NCBI GenBank assembly: GCA_001829415.1
Contig: MIBE01000010.1
Location: 69,926 to 133,925 of the forward strand
Reading direction: 5' to 3'
Source: Spirochaetes bacterium GWF1_51_8
GTDB taxonomy: Bacteria; Spirochaetota; Brevinematia; Brevinematales; GWF1-51-8
DNA length: 64,000 nt
Position numbers and translations under genes: made by a program. Of this stretch, positions 4,562 to 56,123 are shown piece after piece (position 1 is the stretch's first letter; the number at the start of each line of letters is the position of its first letter). The notes beneath the pieces are model-generated. The model ran no database searches. It had not been told where the DNA came from and saw nothing but the letters and a program-made list of their open reading frames with translations.

Positions 4562-5371
4562 ATGAACGAAGGCTGGAAGAAGTACTCGGAGGCCAACCGT
4601 ACCGCGTGGAACGAAGCCGCGCCCATTCACCGGAAAACGAGGCCAGTAGACCTGAACGAGTTCTTCTCGAAACCCGGCGCGTCCCTGCTCGATCCTGTCG
4701 AGACCGGAATTCTTAAGTCGTTCGGCCTCGACGGTAAGACCGTAGCGCAGCTATGCTGTAACAACGGGCGCGATCTCATCTCGATTGTCAACATCGGGGC
4801 GAAATCCGGGACGGGCTTCGATATCTCAGACGGTTTTATCGAGGAAGCCCGTGAACTCGCGAAAACCGCCCGCGCGGATTGCGAATTCGTCCGCACCGAC
4901 ATTCTCGACATCGGACATGAATACGACAACCGTTTCGATATTGTCTATATCTCCATCGGCGCGCTCGCGTGGATGCCCGATCTCGAAGTGTTCTTCGGGA
5001 TTGCCGCCCGCATCATGAGGCCCGGCGGAAATCTTTTCATCTACGAGCACCATCCGATGACTTATCTCATTCCGTTCGAGGAATCCGGGTTTGCGCCCGA
5101 GGGGCTTGTGCTGAAGCCGGAGTATTCCTATTTTAATAAGCAGACAATTGAGGGACGGGGGCTGGACTATTTCGGCTTCACTGAGTACGGCGCGTCGAAG
5201 AACTTCGAGTTCCAGCATACGTTGGGCGAGATTGTCAATTCGGTGATCGGCGCGGGGATTGAGCTATGTGAACTCAAAGAGTATCCGCACGACATCGCTA
5301 ACGGATTCAAATGGGCGGAGGAGATGGGAAAGTTCCCGCTGAGCTATACGTTGACCGGGCGGAAGAAATAA
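4562..5371 (+). CDS. Class I SAM-dependent methyltransferase
   Basis: ORF 4436..5371 trimmed to ATG 4562, which follows AGGAG. Motif I-like VAQLCCNNGRDLI, then FDIVYISIGALAWMPD and GGNLFIYEHHP, typical of the Methyltransf_11/23 fold. Confidence 0.8.
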   Translation: MNEGWKKYSEANRTAWNEAAPIHRKTRPVDLNEFFSKPGASLLDPVETGILKSFGLDGKTVAQLCCNNGRDLISIVNIGAKSGTGFDISDGFIEEARELAKTARADCEFVRTDILDIGHEYDNRFDIVYISIGALAWMPDLEVFFGIAARIMRPGGNLFIYEHHPMTYLIPFEESGFAPEGLVLKPEYSYFNKQTIEGRGLDYFGFTEYGASKNFEFQHTLGEIVNSVIGAGIELCELKEYPHDIANGFKWAEEMGKFPLSYTLTGRKK

Positions 5372-5402
5372 GGGCGGTTCTAAAAACTGCTAACATTTAT
5401 AA

Positions 5403-5999
5403 CAGGAGAGTTCTAAAAATTCTCCACGGATGCAAAACCATCTGTTCTTTCTTTCTTCAAAACCAGAAAGAAAGAACCAAAGAAAGAGGTTCCCCGCCCG
5501 ATGCCGTTCCGAAGAAGAAGGGCGCGAAACGGGAAACGCCGAAACTCGCGTTCAACTGCCAAAAAAAAGCGTTAGAAAGTCACGCTTCGGACATCGGCGT
5601 TTCTTGCCGTTCCGCTTGGTAGAAGTCACGGCATAGCGGCGGGGTTCGAACAGCCGAAGATATAACTACATGGCAGAATTGAACTTGGCTGTTTGACCCG
5701 CGCACTTTAAAGCGCTTTAAACTACCGGAAAATCCGACCAAGGGCGCATGTCCGACACAGTCCCGTTGTCGCTCAAGAGGTCATTTCATGCGAGTTGCGC
5801 CCGTCTCGGATTTTCCTGCTGTTCTCCTGAGCTTTATCAGCGCGCCGGGTAGCTTGCCCCGCGTTCCTTGCGGGGTTCTTTGCTTACTTTCTTTCTGCCC
5901 GCTCACCGCGCCTTCCGCCGATGGCGTCGGCGGACAGGGAAAGAAAGTAAGAGTGTATTCATAGATTTTCTAAAACCCTTAAGGTTTTTAGAAGTACCC
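5403..5999 (+). repeat. About 600-nt hairpin-dense non-coding element, copy A (candidate large structured RNA or non-autonomous mobile element)
   Basis: Reverse-complement match to 54055-54654. Multiple perfect stems, for example 5444-5456/5465-5477, 5533-5542/5594-5603 and 5727-5737/5806-5816, and a long-range pairing 5492-5506/5629-5644. No ORF is conserved between the copies. Confidence 0.9.
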
Positions 6000-6036
6000 A
6001 ACATTAAGTATGATATATCTTGATAGTACGCCCAAT

Positions 6037-6081
6037 GGTCACCTCCTTGCCTGCCTTCTACGAAGGTTATTAGAAGTGACC
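6037..6081. repeat. Small palindromic unit GGTCACYTCC...GAAGTGACC carrying a half copy of the GCCTGCCTTCT module
   Basis: GGTCACCTCCTTGCCTGCCTTCTACGAAGGTTATTAGAAGTGACC. The same outer arms occur at 51616-51649. The inner GCCTGCCTTCTACGAAGG matches the sub-hairpins at 4224-4253 and 30708-30733. Confidence 0.7.
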
Positions 6082-6087
6082 ATAGAA

Positions 6088-7395
6088 CTAACGCTTCCCC
6101 CATATCTTTACCACTGTCTCTTTCCCTTTTACCTTCGTCTCGCCGAGGGGCAGGAAGCAGTCCTGGAGTTCCCGAGGCAGGCATGAATAGAGCGTGTCCG
6201 TTACGATCAGCGGGTTGGCGTAGTCTTTCGTGAGTCCCTCGATCCGCGACGCGAGATTGACCGTATCGCCGATCACGGTAAACTCCTGCCTGTCCAGACT
6301 TCCGATAGTGCCGAGGAGCGCTTCGCCGTAATGGATGCCGATTCCGTTCTCGAAAACAGGCTCGCCGAGTTTAGTCCATTCGCGGTTGAGATCGGCGAGC
6401 GCCGCGCGCATCGCTATCGCCGCCCGGACCGCGTGATCGCAGGGGTACTCGAGCGGGGTCAATCCGCCGAAGTAAGCCATTACTGCGTCGCCGATAAATT
6501 TGTCGACAACCCCGCCGTGCGCGGTGATGCACTCTACCATCCGGTTGAAGTAACGGTTCAGATGCCCGACCACCTGTGTCGGTGAACGGGATTCGCTGAA
6601 GGCGGTGAACGAACGGATGTCCGAGAAGAGCACCGCGATCCGGTGTACCTCGCCGATCGTGCCGGATTTCTCGCGAATCAGCTTCTCCTTCACTTCCTCG
6701 GAAACGAATTTCCCGAAGAGCTTGCTGATGGACTGTTTCTCGTTGAGTTCGCCGAGGATTCTATAGATGAGCGATTTGAAGTGCGAGGACAGCGCCGCGA
6801 CGAGGTAGCCTGTGAAGATCATTGTCAGCGCCTTGAACATATGGAGCGGCATCGATGTCAGGTCCTGGATGACAGTCGGGCTTGCGCCGGATAGTCTGCC
6901 GAGCTCCGATGCCGCGAGCAGGGAGCATCCCGCGTATCCGATCCCGGTGAGCCATCCTCCCAGCCTCGACAGCGTCTCGTTAAACAGGAAGCCCGTCATC
7001 ACAATCAGGAAGAAGTTTAGGTAGGAGAACGGCCCTGTGATATACGCCGCGGCCCCGCCCTCGATAAAAAAGTGGCTGAGAATAAAAAGTGTAGTCGGGA
7101 TAAGGAGATAGGGGATAAAGATGCCGTAGATCAGCCGCACCGACAGCTTACCCGATCTCGCCGCGATGAAGAGGATGAAAGAAAGTATCCCGCCCGCGAA
7201 CGCCATCAAGCCGGGGATGAATACGTCGGCGATCAATCCCCACACTGTCAGGAGGAGGATGAACGCGCCGCCGCCGAGCCCCAGTATCGCGGCGAAAATC
7301 CCGCCGTTCTGGAGCACGGTGTTGACTTCTGTCCGAATTTCCCGTTCGACGATACTCCTGTCGAAATCCTTCAAATCTTTCATTTTATCCGGCAT
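6088..7395 (-). CDS. Membrane-anchored class III adenylate/guanylate cyclase
   Basis: 435 aa. N-terminal half has about 6 TM helices. C-terminal CYCc signatures VLFSDIRSFTAFSE, KFIGDAVMAYFG and FTVIGDTVNLASRIEG. Confidence 0.88.
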   Translation of the reverse strand: MPDKMKDLKDFDRSIVEREIRTEVNTVLQNGGIFAAILGLGGGAFILLLTVWGLIADVFIPGLMAFAGGILSFILFIAARSGKLSVRLIYGIFIPYLLIPTTLFILSHFFIEGGAAAYITGPFSYLNFFLIVMTGFLFNETLSRLGGWLTGIGYAGCSLLAASELGRLSGASPTVIQDLTSMPLHMFKALTMIFTGYLVAALSSHFKSLIYRILGELNEKQSISKLFGKFVSEEVKEKLIREKSGTIGEVHRIAVLFSDIRSFTAFSESRSPTQVVGHLNRYFNRMVECITAHGGVVDKFIGDAVMAYFGGLTPLEYPCDHAVRAAIAMRAALADLNREWTKLGEPVFENGIGIHYGEALLGTIGSLDRQEFTVIGDTVNLASRIEGLTKDYANPLIVTDTLYSCLPRELQDCFLPLGETKVKGKETVVKIWGKR

Positions 7396-37470: not shown

Positions 37471-37484
37471 CGATTACCTGCCTT

Positions 37485-37769
37485 TTATTTGGATAGTTCC
37501 CCGAAAAAGTAATGTTTCCTGACGTCCTCGATCACTTCCCAGACGCATTTTAGGCCTTTCGGGAATGTCACGATATCGCCCTTTCCGAATTCGACGCTTT
37601 CACCGCCGGGTTTTGAGGTGACCTTGACTTTACCCTCGAGGAAGTAGCAGATTTCCTGCTCGTCGTATTCCCAGTCGAAAACGCTCTTTTCTTTCTCCCA
37701 GATCGGCCATTTCCGTACGCCGAGTTCCTGGAGTTTCTCGGGGGTGGCTTTCTCGACTTTGGCTACCAT
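37485..37769 (-). CDS. Cupin (DUF861/EutQ-like) small protein
   Basis: 94 aa. WPIWEKE...FDWEYDEQEICYFLEGKVKV...GDIVTFPKGLKCVWEV. Confidence 0.75.
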   Translation of the reverse strand: MVAKVEKATPEKLQELGVRKWPIWEKEKSVFDWEYDEQEICYFLEGKVKVTSKPGGESVEFGKGDIVTFPKGLKCVWEVIEDVRKHYFFGELSK

Positions 37770-37793
37770 TCGCGCCTCCTTCGAATCGGTATT

Positions 37794-37822
37794 ATTGTAA
37801 GAACAACGGCGTTTTTTTTCAA
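37794..37822 (-). promoter_or_regulatory. Sigma-70-type promoter of the cupin-purD operon
   Basis: Minus strand: TTGAAA (37822-37817), 17 nt, TACAAT (37799-37794). GAAGGAGG Shine-Dalgarno precedes ATG 37769. Confidence 0.5.
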
Positions 37823-37872
37823 GCGGAGGGAAGGAGTATTTTAGGCATAGGACGCAGGCGGAGGGTTTTGTA

Positions 37873-38040
37873 TTATTCGCCCGGCGCGTACTTTATCAGC
37901 TCCTCGATGACCGCGAGGGGTTCGGCTGCCTCGAACGAAAAGACCGGGTTGGGCAATGCGGACAGGGCGGCGGTTAGGCCTTCCGGGGTAAGCCGGATAC
38001 TTCGCCCGGGATCGCCGGGATTGAACATGAAACGTTCGAG
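37873..38040 (-). pseudogene. Detached 3'-terminal fragment of a ybaK-like gene (duplicate of 39052-39161 plus an alternative C-terminus)
   Basis: The minus-strand frame reads ...LERFMFNPGDPGRSIRLTPEGLTAALSALPNPVFSFEAAEPLAVIEELIKYAPGE*, with the stop at 37873-37875. 37931-38040 matches 39052-39161 with 4 mismatches in 110 nt. Confidence 0.8.
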
Positions 38041-43984: not shown

Positions 43985-44167
43985 TCTCCAAGTAAGAATG
44001 CGTTTGCGATTCAGGCGGGAATGCGGTTTCCACGCCGGATTTGGGCTGTACTTCAATTCCACCAGGCCGAGGATGACGCCGATCACACAGATGAACGCGG
44101 ATAATCATAAAAAAGGTGAAAGAAACGGATTTACCCGAGATTGAAGAGATTATCAAGGAGAAGAGGA

Positions 44168-44428
44168 ATGATTTCATCGGCGAATGGAATAAGCATTTCG
44201 GAATATGAGGTCACAAATATCGAACGATTAGGATTTTGGCTGTATGTCGACGATACGGAATATTTCGTCAGTTTCGACCGGTTTCCCGCATTTAAAAACG
44301 CGCCCGTGGGGCAAATTCTGAATGTAAAACGCCTCGACCCTTCGCAATTCAACTGGCCCGATCTGGATATCGACGTCGATATCGAATCGTTGAGCGCACC
44401 GGACAAGTATCCGTTGGAATATAAGTAG
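44168..44428 (+). CDS. DUF2442-family small protein
   Basis: ATG 44168 follows AAGGAG. GFWLYVDDTEYFVSFDRFPAFKNAP...NWPDLDIDVDIESL is typical of DUF2442. The sequence just upstream reads like the C-terminal remnant of a DUF4160 partner (..FIGEWNKHFGI*). Confidence 0.65.
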   Translation: MISSANGISISEYEVTNIERLGFWLYVDDTEYFVSFDRFPAFKNAPVGQILNVKRLDPSQFNWPDLDIDVDIESLSAPDKYPLEYK

Positions 44429-44509
44429 AAAAAATCCGCATGAGTATTGTTATCGCATGGAGACTGCGGTAAGGCCGATGCGGCAGGCTTACTGTATTAA
44501 TAAAACTTC

Positions 44510-44588
44510 TTACAAAAACCTTTCGTCGAAAAACCGTTTCGCTTCCTTCACCAGCCTCTCGCGCTTCCCGAACAGCACCTTCGCGGGG
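44510..44588 (-). pseudogene. Detached duplicate of the last 79 nt of the DinG-like helicase gene
   Basis: Matches 45457-45535 with 3 mismatches. The minus frame reads ...AKVLFGKRERLVKEAKRFFDERFL*, against ...FFNERFL* in the intact gene. Confidence 0.85.
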
Positions 44589-44615
44589 CGTTTTTTTATT
44601 TCGGCAGGCGGGGTA

Positions 44616-44653
44616 TAAGAAAAACGGGAAAAGTAATTATCATACTTTTCCCG
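44616..44653 (-). terminator. Rho-independent terminator of the cassette gene
   Basis: Stem CGGGAAAAGTA/TACTTTTCCCG (44625-44635/44643-44653), followed on the minus strand by TTTTTCTT. Confidence 0.7.
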
Positions 44654-44676
44654 TAAGGTTTGTTAATACGATCGGG

Positions 44677-53058: not shown

Positions 53059-54024
53059 ATGGCTGAAGGGCTAACATTTTATTCGAAATCCGAACTCATC
53101 TGCCCTGTCTGCGGAGTAGGTCATAAACGTGAGGAAATGCTCACCGGGCGCGGGAGATTCAACGCCGGGGCGTTATCCAACGAGCTCCGCCGCAGTTATA
53201 TCGCCACCCAGAAGTTCGGTGAAGTCAATCCCCTGATTTATCCTGTCGCGGTCTGCCCGAGCTGTCTGTTCGCGGCGGACAAGGACGATTTTACCAAAGT
53301 CCCCCCGAAATCGGTAGAACAGCTTCTCGAACTCCAGCAGGTTCGCGGGAAGTATATGCTGAAAATTTTCGGCATGGTTCCGGATTTTGTCGGCCCGCGC
53401 GAACTGATCAGCGGCATCGGAAGCTATATCCTCGCGATCAGTTCTTCGCCTTTTCTCGATAAACGCAAACAAGCCCCGACTATAAAAATGGGTATCTATT
53501 CGCTCCGGACTGCATGGCTGATGATCGACTTGTTCAGGCAGACTAACGAGCCGAAGTATCAGGAGCTGTCCGACCTGTTCTACCGGAAGGCCTCGGAGTT
53601 CTACGAGCAGGCGCTCGAACTTCAGTCGAAGGGCATCGAGCCTCTCGACGGCGCTAGATGGCTCGGGCCGGATACGGATTACAATTTCGGGTATGACGGC
53701 TTCCTCTATATCGACGCCGTCCTCAAGTATAAAACCGCCGTGTTTATGGAAGACCCGATCGAACGTGTGAAGTGCTACGAAGGGGTGAAGCGCATCCTGT
53801 CCAAGGTGTTCGGTATCGGGCGTAAGGCTAAGGACAAGCCCGAGATACTGCTCAACCTTTCCCGCGAAGTATACGATAAGATCGGTGAAGAAGTGGAGAA
53901 ATTGAAGGAATCGCTGGGCGACCTCAACGAGCTCGAGAACCTCGAGCAGGCTGTTGAGGAAGCCGCGAAACAAGCCGCTAAGGAAGACGCCCAAGCGTCC
54001 GCCGAAGCGCCCGCCGAAGAATAA
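53059..54024 (+). CDS. DUF2225-family protein (zinc ribbon plus helical domain)
   Basis: 321 aa. CPVCG...CPSCLFA zinc-ribbon pairs at the N-terminus and an acidic/Ala-rich tail. Confidence 0.7.
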   Translation: MAEGLTFYSKSELICPVCGVGHKREEMLTGRGRFNAGALSNELRRSYIATQKFGEVNPLIYPVAVCPSCLFAADKDDFTKVPPKSVEQLLELQQVRGKYMLKIFGMVPDFVGPRELISGIGSYILAISSSPFLDKRKQAPTIKMGIYSLRTAWLMIDLFRQTNEPKYQELSDLFYRKASEFYEQALELQSKGIEPLDGARWLGPDTDYNFGYDGFLYIDAVLKYKTAVFMEDPIERVKCYEGVKRILSKVFGIGRKAKDKPEILLNLSREVYDKIGEEVEKLKESLGDLNELENLEQAVEEAAKQAAKEDAQASAEAPAEE

Positions 54025-54054: not shown

Positions 54055-54654
54055 GGGTAGTTATAAAAACCTTAAGGATTTTAGAAAACTATAAATATAC
54101 TCTTACTTTCTTTCTGAGCGGGCACCGCGCCTTCCGCCAGCCTTCCATCTCAGAAGGAAAGTGAACAGGACGATGGCGTCGGCGGACAGGGAAAGAAAGT
54201 AACAAAGAACCCCGCAAGGAACGCGGGGCAAGCTATCCGCCGCGCTGATAAAGCTCAGGGGAAGAGCCGGAAAATCCGGAAAAGGCATAACTCCTCCCTT
54301 CGGTCGTCGAACAAATGCCTTTTCTTCGGATTTCCCGGGAGTTTGAAGCGCTTTAAAGTGCGCGGACAAAACAGCCAACTTCAGTCACCTATTCATGTCT
54401 TCGGCTGTTCGAACCCCGCCGCTATGCCGTGACTTCTACCAAGCGGAACGGCCAGAAACGCCGATGTCCGAAGCGTGACTTTATATCGCTTCTTTTGGCG
54501 GCCGACCGCGAGTTTCGGCGTTTCCCGTTTCGCGCCCCTCTTCTTTGGAACGGCATCGGGCGGGGAACCTCTTTCTTTCGTTCTTTCTTTCTGGGTTTGC
54601 AGAAAGAAAGAACAGTGGGTTTTACATCCTTGGAGATTTTTTTGAACTCTCCTG
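54055..54654 (-). repeat. About 600-nt hairpin-dense non-coding element, copy B (reverse orientation relative to copy A)
   Basis: The reverse complement aligns end to end with 5403-5999. It carries a 33-nt insertion (54139-54171) and an oppositely oriented IR-flanked segment (54103-54203). Confidence 0.9.
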
Positions 54655-54719
54655 ATGAAATCTAAAATTTATATATTGCTTTTTCGTACGCTCTATTTTT
54701 AATATAAACGGAGGAAAAA

Positions 54720-56123
54720 ATGTCCCAGCGCATCGCATTCGATTATAATAATATGATGGCTGATAATATCGGCACGAGGATGGGGATCAGTTCCGAACGG
54801 CTCGCGAGTTTCGCGAAGATCACCGCTAAGGCGCATGAAGATATGCTCCGCCGCCGTAAGGCGAACGAGCTCCCGTTCTACGATCTTCCTTACCAGAAAG
54901 ACCTTGTCAAACGGCTGCAGACCGCCGCGAAGGAATATATCGGTAAGTTCGACACTCAGGTCGTGATCGGGATAGGCGGTTCGGCGTTAGGCCCGCTCGC
55001 CCTCCAGACCTCGTTACGCAACTGTTTCTGGAACGAGCTTCCCGCCGGAAAACGGAACGGGATGCGCACTTATTATACGGATAACGTCGATCCCGACTGG
55101 ACGAAAGAGCTCATGGAACTGATCGACCCTAAGAACACCCTGTTCCTGATCGTCACCAAATCCGGGAGCACGTCCGAGACCATCACGACGTTTTTCATTC
55201 TCCAAAAGTTCCTAATCGAAGCGGTGGGCGAGGCCGAGTACAAAAAGCACCTCGCGTTCGTGACCGACCCGTCGAAAAGCATCCTCAAGGAGATCGCCGA
55301 GAAGGAGAACATCCCGTGGTTCCCGATCGAACCTCTTGTCGGTGGACGTTTCTCCGTGCTGACGCCGGTGGGGCTGTTTCCCGCGGCGCTGATGGGGATC
55401 GATATCGAGAAACTGCTCGCGGGTGCGGCCGAGATGGACAAATGGACGTCTACCGCCGAACTTCACAACAACCCCGCGTACCTCTACGCCGTGCTTCAAT
55501 ACCTCGCGTATCAGAACGGCGCGCCTATTTCCGTGCTGATGCCTTATTCCAATAAAATGTCCCGCCTCGCGGACTGGTATGTCCAGCTTTGGGCGGAAAG
55601 CCTCGGGAAGAAGTTTACTCTCGACGGCAATATCCATTTCCAGGGCCCGACACCGCTGAAAGCGGTCGGCGCGACAGACCAGCACTCGCAGGTTCAGCTT
55701 TTCAAGGAAGGCCCTTATGATAAAGTCGTCACGTTTATCCGCGTGGAGAATTTCGAGCACTCGTTGAAAATCCCATCGCTCTACAGCGAATACAAGGGGA
55801 TCAACTATCTCGGCGGGCATACGATGAACGAGCTATTCGACGCGGAGCAGAAGGCCACCGAGGTCGCGCTCGCGAAGGAAGGCCGCCCGAGTATCACGAT
55901 CACCGTGCCGAAAGTGGACGAGTTCACGATGGGGCAATTGATCTATCTCTTCGAGGTGGCGACGGTCTTTTCCGGCTATCTCTATCAGCTCGATCCGTTA
56001 GACCAGCCCGGGGTGGAAGAGGGGAAGAACTTCACCTACGGACTGCTGGGACGCGCCGGATACGAAGATAAAAAGAAGGAATTCGATGGAATTTATAAGA
56101 AAAACAAGGATTATATTCTTTAG
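54720..56123 (+). CDS. pgi: Glucose-6-phosphate isomerase
   Basis: 467 aa. IGIGGSALGP, VTKSGSTSET and GGRFSVLT motifs. GGAGGAAAAAA precedes the ATG. Confidence 0.93.
   Translation: MSQRIAFDYNNMMADNIGTRMGISSERLASFAKITAKAHEDMLRRRKANELPFYDLPYQKDLVKRLQTAAKEYIGKFDTQVVIGIGGSALGPLALQTSLRNCFWNELPAGKRNGMRTYYTDNVDPDWTKELMELIDPKNTLFLIVTKSGSTSETITTFFILQKFLIEAVGEAEYKKHLAFVTDPSKSILKEIAEKENIPWFPIEPLVGGRFSVLTPVGLFPAALMGIDIEKLLAGAAEMDKWTSTAELHNNPAYLYAVLQYLAYQNGAPISVLMPYSNKMSRLADWYVQLWAESLGKKFTLDGNIHFQGPTPLKAVGATDQHSQVQLFKEGPYDKVVTFIRVENFEHSLKIPSLYSEYKGINYLGGHTMNELFDAEQKATEVALAKEGRPSITITVPKVDEFTMGQLIYLFEVATVFSGYLYQLDPLDQPGVEEGKNFTYGLLGRAGYEDKKKEFDGIYKKNKDYIL

Follow-up and report, generated by a model that had tools for sequence, protein, structure and literature searches.

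Introduction

The Correia repeats of Neisseria, the ERIC/IRU repeats of enterobacteria and the BOX and RUP repeats of pneumococci are non-coding, multicopy sequences that occupy intergenic sites in either orientation, often at the 3' ends of genes, that form stable hairpins when transcribed, that are modular or mosaic in build (as in the A, B and C boxes of BOX), and that are absent from the orthologous sites of relatives. An element of ~600 nt with these same properties is present twice in the stretch of DNA considered here, 64,000 nt (64 kb) of contig MIBE01000010.1 from Spirochaetes bacterium GWF1_51_8, an uncultured Brevinematales spirochaete from groundwater known as a metagenome-assembled genome; we call this stretch the window throughout. 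The likeness has limits. Correia, ERIC, BOX and RUP repeats measure 100-200 nt, end in clear terminal inverted repeats and are usually flanked by a target duplication, whereas the present element has an inverted end motif of 9-10 nt, no consistent duplication and ~16 constrained helices, long-range ones among them.

Other described systems come close in other respects. The REP/BIME mosaics, which RAYT (TnpA-REP) transposases mobilise, are likewise composed of palindromic units, occur in both orientations and lie between convergent genes; they have terminator or mRNA-stabilising effects and are thought to move as single-stranded hairpins. Their units, found in hundreds of copies, are GC-rich palindromes of 20-40 nt headed by GTAG or CGTC, whereas the unit repeated here is the whole 600 nt. 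The palindrome-associated transposable elements (PATEs) derived from IS200/IS605, together with omega-RNA/HEARO scaffolds, resemble the element in being dispersed and free of open reading frames (ORFs), in lacking terminal inverted repeats and target duplications, and in carrying subterminal hairpins, and some PATEs carry a conserved structured RNA; the points on which they differ are weighed below. The large RNAs OLE, ROOL, GOLLD and raiA share with the element a length of ~600 nt, many helices, variable peripheral hairpins, the absence of an ORF and two-sided pair changes, but these RNAs are found in many genera and have a clear transcribed strand, whereas the element matches no covariance model, is found in one species, gives no strand signal and has hairpin interiors flipped at the level of DNA. 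ORF-less group II (class C) introns are also non-coding, mobile, highly structured and ~0.5-0.6 kb long, and insert downstream of terminator hairpins; the element, by contrast, has no domain V, no GUGYG 5' end and no Rfam group II match at E<10. Judged against these systems, the element would work most like the repeats that resemble MITEs (miniature inverted-repeat transposable elements), namely Correia, ERIC and BOX, and like the REP/BIME mosaics, while being three to five times longer, without their defining ends and with a far more elaborate selected fold. As in a MITE, it is short, ORF-less and multicopy with presence/absence differences; a fixed-length target duplication is lacking.

We read the element as belonging to a family of non-coding dispersed repeats, ~0.6 kb long, that is restricted to one species and has not been described before, and our preferred interpretation, held tentatively, is that it is an unclassified non-autonomous mobile repeat dependent on single-stranded folding. 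It is also possible, if on the whole unlikely, that the copies are multicopy genes for a large structured non-coding RNA acting in trans, or in cis as a 3'-untranslated or intergenic element; a ~250-nt 5' domain would then be the functional core, variation would be tolerated in the peripheral hairpins, as it is in other large bacterial RNAs, and duplication or a mobile carrier would account for the spread of the copies. The two views are compatible, as a mobile element may act via its transcript.

The Element and its Copies

Positions 5403-5999 on the plus strand (copy A) and 54055-54654 on the minus strand (copy B) are two copies of one ~600-nt element in opposite orientation, and a MAFFT alignment joins them from end to end. 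A preliminary description, made from the letters of the window and a list of its ORFs, had proposed as much, and blastn bears it out, with 78% identity over 632 columns (E 3e-148); the same description had called the first ~260 nt nearly identical, and within the first 262 nt the two copies indeed agree at 240 of 261 positions. Copy A runs from CAGGAGAG on the left to ACCC on the right (nhmmer E 5e-199), and copy B lies between a DUF2225 gene (53059-54024) and the gene for glucose-6-phosphate isomerase (PGI, 54720-56123). Both are intergenic, each lying in the sole ~700-nt gene-free gap of its neighbourhood. Six-frame translation of all copies gave no conserved reading frame, every frame being shifted by indels, and neither blastn nor an nhmmer profile detected a third copy within the window.

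Four more copies, three full-length and one diverged and reduced to the 5' domain, were recovered from metagenome contigs, which brings the total to at least six. The scan used a 20-mer from the invariant block described below and returned true homologues on contigs L009, L006, L007 and L008; a match on a further contig, L005, is a chance one inside an ABC-transporter gene. L009:2231-2805 is a full copy; L006 and L007 hold one copy seen in two data sets, both contigs ending inside it; L008:2130-2790 is a rearranged copy; and L008:938-1209 is the diverged sixth copy (~65% identical; profile search E 4e-18). Copies A and B, L009, L006/L007 and the rearranged L008 copy can all be aligned with one another. 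Given that the JGI data set from which L007 and L009 come (3300025009) also contains contigs identical to the window, these copies derive from this species and possibly from one genome. The window contig itself recurs in groundwater metagenome assemblies (SRR1658472/PRJNA268031). On L008 a polysaccharide deacetylase gene (1252-2070) stands between the short and the full copy, which share one orientation, so that positions 938-2790 resemble a composite unit. The short copy has, in place of the 3' arm of hairpin H4 (see below), a second AACAGCC in direct orientation.

As far as sampled, the family is restricted to a single species, a distribution that sits poorly with a large RNA, since the known ones are widespread. 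A 20-mer from the most conserved block had no match in 185,579 species-representative genomes, and ~70 kb sampled from the nearest relatives held no copy. The RNase Y of the window is 100% identical to that of Spirochaetes bacterium GWF1_51_8 and has its next-best match at 74% identity, the others belonging to Brevinematales, Brevinema and Thermospira, and the loci of these nearest RNase Y relatives showed neither synteny nor a copy. Extension of the window through its edge proteins, by +5.3 kb and -2.7 kb, yielded no additional copy. Phage and plasmid collections held nothing similar to the element by blastn, a 17-mer from it was without match among viral contigs, and a chimeric six-frame pseudo-protein of the element had no match in a collection of 5.8 billion proteins. 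A viral-contig match of the 19-mer GGTTCCCCGCCCGATGCCG is due to chance and falls in the coding region of an intein-like gene. The literature on Brevinematales repeats and on the structure of bacterial MITEs supplied general background only.

Insertion Sites and Ends

Two related genomes lack the element at the site of copy B: DUF2225 and PGI are separated by 55 nt in Brevinematales DeMMO6_14 and by ~100 nt in GWF1_49_6 (PGI 85% identical), vs 695 nt in the window. This speaks for mobility and against an RNA gene. The contigs of three other assemblies of the same organism begin right at PGI and so break at copy B, and the L007 contig begins inside its copy, which is the pattern of an assembly-breaking repeat. 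The six copies occupy five unrelated loci, flanked by housekeeping genes only; they are thus dispersed to unrelated intergenic sites in either orientation, three of the six between convergent genes and none between divergent ones. The upstream gene is co-directional with the element in five of the six, as an RNA gene or 3'-untranslated element would favour. Copy B is antisense to its operon, which such an RNA accounts for less readily.

The 65 nt that separate copy B from the PGI start codon (54655-54719) have no counterpart in the related genomes and contain a promoter-like TTGCTT-17-TTAATA, seen by eye and not called by the scan tool. Judging from these letters, the insertion that separated PGI from DUF2225 may have been followed by the gain of a new promoter for PGI.

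At its right end the element carries a palindrome, TTCTAAAACC-CTTAA-GGTTTTTAGAA (5967-5993), with two arms of ~11 nt and a short spacer; 11-spacer-11 palindromes are of the type bound by recombinases and transposases. Its TTCTAAAAA motif is found again, inverted, at 5411-5419 (left end) and at 5378-5387 (left flank), with a single further occurrence elsewhere in the window. The copy in the flank, TTCTAAAAAC on the plus strand, lies 25 nt outside the aligned left end of copy A and is a perfect 10-nt inverted match to the right-end arm. The outermost bases, CAGGAGAG and ACCC, are not inverted repeats of each other. A sigma-70-like site facing outward, TTTAGA-16-TATGAT (9/12, 5987-6014), has its -35 in the right-end palindrome of copy A and its -10 in the flank, and would be a hybrid promoter as made by some insertion sequences; the other copies do not preserve it.

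Direct repeats flank two of the metagenome copies. The L009 copy is bracketed by a 42-nt repeat with 35 of 42 positions identical (L009:2164-2206 and L009:2777-2819). The repeat combines the spacer of the terminal palindrome and its right arm with 21 nt of flank and extends as far as the downstream gene's ribosome-binding site; it might stem from att-like recombination, from an exceptionally long target duplication or from what is left of a tandem copy. The L006/L007 copy is flanked by the 6-nt repeat ATAGTA.

Selection on the Fold

The preliminary description had further argued that the fold is maintained by selection and is not the residue of neutral decay, and several measurements support it in this. 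The element folds far more stably than dinucleotide shuffles of itself, with z scores of -7.3 for copy A, -6.0 for copy B and -8.3 for copy A on the opposite strand. Between A and B, substitutions fall in 4 of 136 paired vs 15 of 121 unpaired columns (p 0.004), and every pairwise comparison shows a substitution rate two to twenty times lower in paired columns than in unpaired ones, with contrasts up to p 1e-9 in other copy pairs that are partly inflated by the ragged 5' end. Pair changes also come out in favour of pairing: two-sided changes affect 8 of 58 pairs of the 5'-domain alignment (1.9 +/- 1.2 when shuffled, 1-3 with partners slid) and 12 of 144 pairs of the full alignment (4.6 in shuffles), figures drawn from only 5-6 related sequences and a structure derived from these same sequences. 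The diverged copy L008:938-1209 forms 50 of 54 pairs although about a third of its unpaired positions differ; nine of its 13 changed pairs still pair, six of them by two-sided changes. In L008:2130-2790 the interior of the 5' domain has been swapped for other hairpins and the closing helices are retained. Because stems are conserved relative to loops, two-sided changes are in excess and the diverged copy keeps its pairs, the helices are under selective constraint and the element is not a dead repeat decaying neutrally; some 16 helices, arranged as nested inverted repeats, are maintained by selection.

Much of this is what a structured RNA would lead one to expect: stems kept while loops drift, an excess of two-sided changes, a diverged copy that consists of the 5' domain alone, and peripheral hairpins exchanged around closing helices that stay. 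Template switching between the arms of a DNA palindrome can, however, give a two-sided pair change in a single step, so the two-sided changes do not prove an RNA.

Anatomy

The stems listed in the preliminary description are all present where it placed them, and the following account is given in copy A coordinates, on the plus strand unless noted. After a weak hairpin that is the 5'-most feature (5405-5425) comes H1 (5444-5477), a 13-bp polypyrimidine/polypurine hairpin with arms GTTCTTTCTTTCT and AGAAAGAAAGAAC (5444-5456/5465-5477). Its stem is invariant among the full copies while its loop varies (TCAAAACC in A, GCAAACCC in B); ten of 11 pairs never vary, and the outermost changes from G-C to C-G in the diverged copy. 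The purine linker AAAGAAAGAGG (5479-5489), a third copy of the GAAAGAAAG-type motif, is kept in all copies. The motif GAAAGAAAG itself occurs nine times inside copies A and B and only twice elsewhere in the window; like TTCTAAAA, it clusters in the element and hardly appears in the remainder.

The 5' domain (5492-5644) is a multibranch fold of ~150 nt closed by the long-range helix P1, in which CCCCGCC..ATGCCG (5492-5506) pairs with CGGCAT..GGCGGGG (5629-5644), and contains the helix GAAACGCCGA/TCGGCGTTTC (5533-5542/5594-5603). P1 and the inner helices persist in the diverged copy L008:938-1209 through two-sided pair changes. A 31-nt block, GGCATAGCGGCGGGGTTCGAACAGCCGAAGA (5630-5660), spans the 3' strand of P1, the junction and the 5' strand of the next hairpin, and is identical in five of five full-length copies, with the caveat that the metagenome copies were retrieved with a 20-mer from inside it. 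That next hairpin, H4 (5648-5697; GAACAGCCGA and TTGGCTGTTT), has ACAGCC/GGCTGT (5650-5655/5687-5692) as its core and ten pairs of which none varies, including two invariant G-U pairs on the plus strand, which favour an RNA read from that strand; its loop differs by indels.

The second domain comprises a perfect 16-nt palindrome, TTTAAAGCGCTTTAAA (5706-5721 in copy A, its second half variable in other copies), and a long hairpin of 90 nt (5727-5816; alignment columns 388-411 with 491-512) with outer stem GGAAAATCCGA/TCGGATTTTCC and inner stem GGGCGCA/TGCGCCC. The inner stem had been called completely different between A and B, which overstates the case: the positions are homologous, and three inner pairs of copy A are changed on both sides relative to the other copies, A-T to G-C twice and T-A to C-G once (columns 406/496, 410/492 and 411/491), together with a change in stem length. 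Similarly, the loops closed by this hairpin and by ACAGCC/GGCTGT are less unrelated than had been thought, since their ends can be aligned and they differ mainly by indels. The apical part of the long hairpin varies by indels, among them a 52-nt insertion in L006/L007 and L008 between GTCCGACGAC and GTCGGACGAC.

Toward the 3' end stands H9 (5856-5886), the GC hairpin GCCCCGCGTTCCTTGCGGGGT with its T-rich tail, which a terminator scan scores as terminator-like on the element strand in both copies, a point in favour of an RNA ending there; H1 scores as terminator-like on the opposite strand. H10 (5883-5951), with arms CTTACTTTCTTTC and GAAAGAAAGTAAG, has the same core as H1 and encloses a 33-nt module (5906-5938); among the copies its arms enclose 9-130 nt. 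Spacer-less palindromes, which are unable to form RNA hairpins and are typical of binding sites for dimeric proteins, are abundant in the element: TTCGAA (5644-5649), TTTAAAGCGCTTTAAA and CCTTAAGG (5977-5984).

Rearranged Modules

The interior of H10 exists in three states. In copy A and L009 the module is forward, after GCCCGCTCA; in copy B (54102-54203) and L006/L007 it is reverse-complemented and lies on the other side of TGCCCGCTCA, this inverted state (54139-54190 in copy B) standing before TGCCCGCTCA and being split by a 32- or 61-nt insert; and in L008 (L008:2675-2705) the module is absent. Forward or inverted, the module adjoins a GAAAGAAAG arm with its relative orientation unchanged, and judging from the letters the states look like a flip or like independent insertion beside either GAAAGAAAG arm. 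H9 also moves: L008 has none at the usual position but carries an inverted version beside GAAAGAA in the 5' part. Such reverse-complementation alters the sequence of an RNA but not the palindrome in DNA, and so speaks against constraint acting through a transcript. Independent small mobile hairpins were considered as an explanation and set aside, as the modules were not found outside the element in the window and the same-organism loci.

Strand, Promoter and RNA-family Tests

A direction of transcription had been proposed for the element, with A read from the plus and B from the minus strand. This is not supported, and nothing identifies the fold as one of RNA. The two strands have the same consensus folding energy (-137.4 kcal/mol on the plus vs -138.9 on the minus), single copies favour one strand or the other, and substitutions that leave a wobble favour the proposed strand by only ~6:3. 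G-U cells number 46 on the plus vs 31 on the minus strand. A scan found no sigma-70-like promoter upstream of copy A or B and no conserved promoter, and terminator-like hairpins occur on both strands. The missing asymmetry and the missing promoter both weaken the case for RNA genes.

The failure to place the element in a known RNA family, at first a judgement by eye, was confirmed by search: Rfam 15, whose families include OLE, ROOL, GOLLD, HEARO, raiA, group I and II introns, RNase P, tmRNA, 6S and SRP, gave no match at the gathering threshold in the whole window, and at E<10 on 5300-6100 it gave only noise of eukaryotic miRNA/snoRNA type, all below 17 bits. ARAGORN found no tRNA or tmRNA, and tRNA, rRNA and Rfam-recognisable RNA are absent across the window. 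Three other candidates were rejected. A tRNA-like element around GGGGTTCGAAC was negative in ARAGORN and has no complementary T-stem; a type I toxin-antitoxin locus is contradicted by the lack of a conserved small hydrophobic ORF; and an arginine-rich ORF (MPFRRRRARNGKRRNS...) with its ATG at 5500 (5500-5622), which has a strong AAAGAGG resembling a ribosome-binding site 11 nt upstream, differs among copies by frameshifts, by mostly non-synonymous changes and in length, from 10 to 44 aa, and is probably not coding.

How the Element May Move, and Rival Explanations

Under the interpretation that we prefer, the element would be moved by an enzyme encoded elsewhere, whose recognition sites would be the inverted TTCTAAAAA(C) ends, the two CTTTCTTTC/GAAAGAAAG hairpins on either side of the core, or both. 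The importance of the fold would lie in a single-stranded state through which the element passes or in which it is read. After insertion at the 3' ends of genes it would be co-transcribed, and H9 on one strand with H1 on the other could then serve as a two-way stop or insulator. The preliminary description had offered, as its alternative, a non-autonomous element of IS200/IS605 style; its suggestion of non-autonomous mobility is strengthened by the empty site, the assembly breaks, the rearranged modules and the flanking direct repeats, while the assignment to IS200/IS605 does not stand, for want of a left-end target and in view of opposite orientations on one replichore.

A number of observations weigh against a mobile repeat of this kind. 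No transposase, recombinase or reverse transcriptase lies beside any copy, a negative that covers the window and the copy neighbourhoods within the ~100 kb of host genome reachable for searches, and H9 and the 33-nt module do not occur as free-standing repeats in the same ~100 kb. Only six copies are known, and the left boundary is ragged among them. There is no convincing terminal inverted repeat beyond the 9-10 nt of the TTCTAAAAA(C) motif (5411 or 5378 vs 5993), and no target-site duplication at copies A and B, as the preliminary description had rightly noted; the lengths and offsets of flanking repeats disagree among copies (none at A and B, 6 nt and 42 nt in the two others). Finally, constraint extends over helices along almost the whole 600 nt, long-range closing helices included, whereas known DNA transposons require far less, at their ends; in this respect the element looks more like a structured RNA.

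An RNA thus explains the breadth of the constraint and the copy reduced to a 5' domain better than a mobile repeat does, and is the poorer account of the flipped modules, the missing strand signal, the antisense orientation of copy B and the narrow distribution. We also consider, and regard as doubtful, a large structured RNA of ~0.6 kb and of a new class, which either moves by itself or rides on a mobile unit. Such an RNA would include an autonomous 5' domain of ~250 nt, multibranched, closed by CCCCGCC.ATGCCG/CGGCAT..GGCGGGG and preceded by the invariant polypyrimidine/polypurine hairpin, and would so far be confined to a Brevinematales lineage from groundwater.

It is improbable that the element is a PATE of IS200/IS605 type, moved as single-stranded DNA via its subterminal hairpins and perhaps bearing the guide-RNA scaffold of a nuclease, TnpB or IscB, whose gene would lie elsewhere. 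The absence of long terminal inverted repeats and of a target duplication at A and B would be in keeping with it, as would selection on single-strand folding, the hairpins near both ends, with H1 and H10 sharing the arm sequence CTTTCTTTC/GAAAGAAAG in the same orientation, and the modules that abut GAAAGAA(AG) in one relative orientation on either strand. Yet the left end shows no conserved tetra- or pentanucleotide (the flanks read TATAA, TTCAT, TAGTA and GCGCAG), and the terminal hairpins (5405-5425 and 5967-5993) are unlike each other. Orientation bias is likewise missing, copies A and B being opposite in a window whose GC skew has one sign (weakly positive), a comparison of two copies only. 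Nor is there a match to HEARO or any other Rfam model, or a tnpA, tnpB or iscB beside any copy.

A neutrally decaying relic of a duplicated or foreign segment (an old prophage, a plasmid or a single-strand origin region) without present function would suit the few copies, narrow distribution, ragged left ends and many indels and rearrangements between copies, but is very improbable in the face of the rarity of substitutions in paired columns in every pairwise comparison, the two-sided changes by which the most diverged copy keeps its helices, the lack of phage or plasmid similarity and a GC content that resembles that of the genome.

If the element is a mobile repeat, its length and the intricacy of its fold are unusual, and it comes from a spirochaete order that has scarcely been studied, the Brevinematales, about whose mobile DNA we know of nothing described; its flipped and relocated hairpin modules could then reveal how such mosaics are assembled. 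If it is an RNA, it would add to the large structured RNAs a new member whose 5' domain is compact, independently conserved and open to probing or solving. On the practical side, it breaks the metagenome assemblies of this organism, and it has split DUF2225-PGI, a tight two-gene unit in relatives.

Other Features of the Window

From ~6 kb to 40 kb of the window almost all genes lie on the minus strand, and the weakly positive GC skew runs throughout. Two large gaps, at 37471-38040 and 43985-44676, are not additional copies of the element and by eye appear to hold small genes. A small DUF2442 gene (44141-44428, plus strand; Pfam E 2.5e-12) lies inside an apparent gene-free gap of 690 nt.

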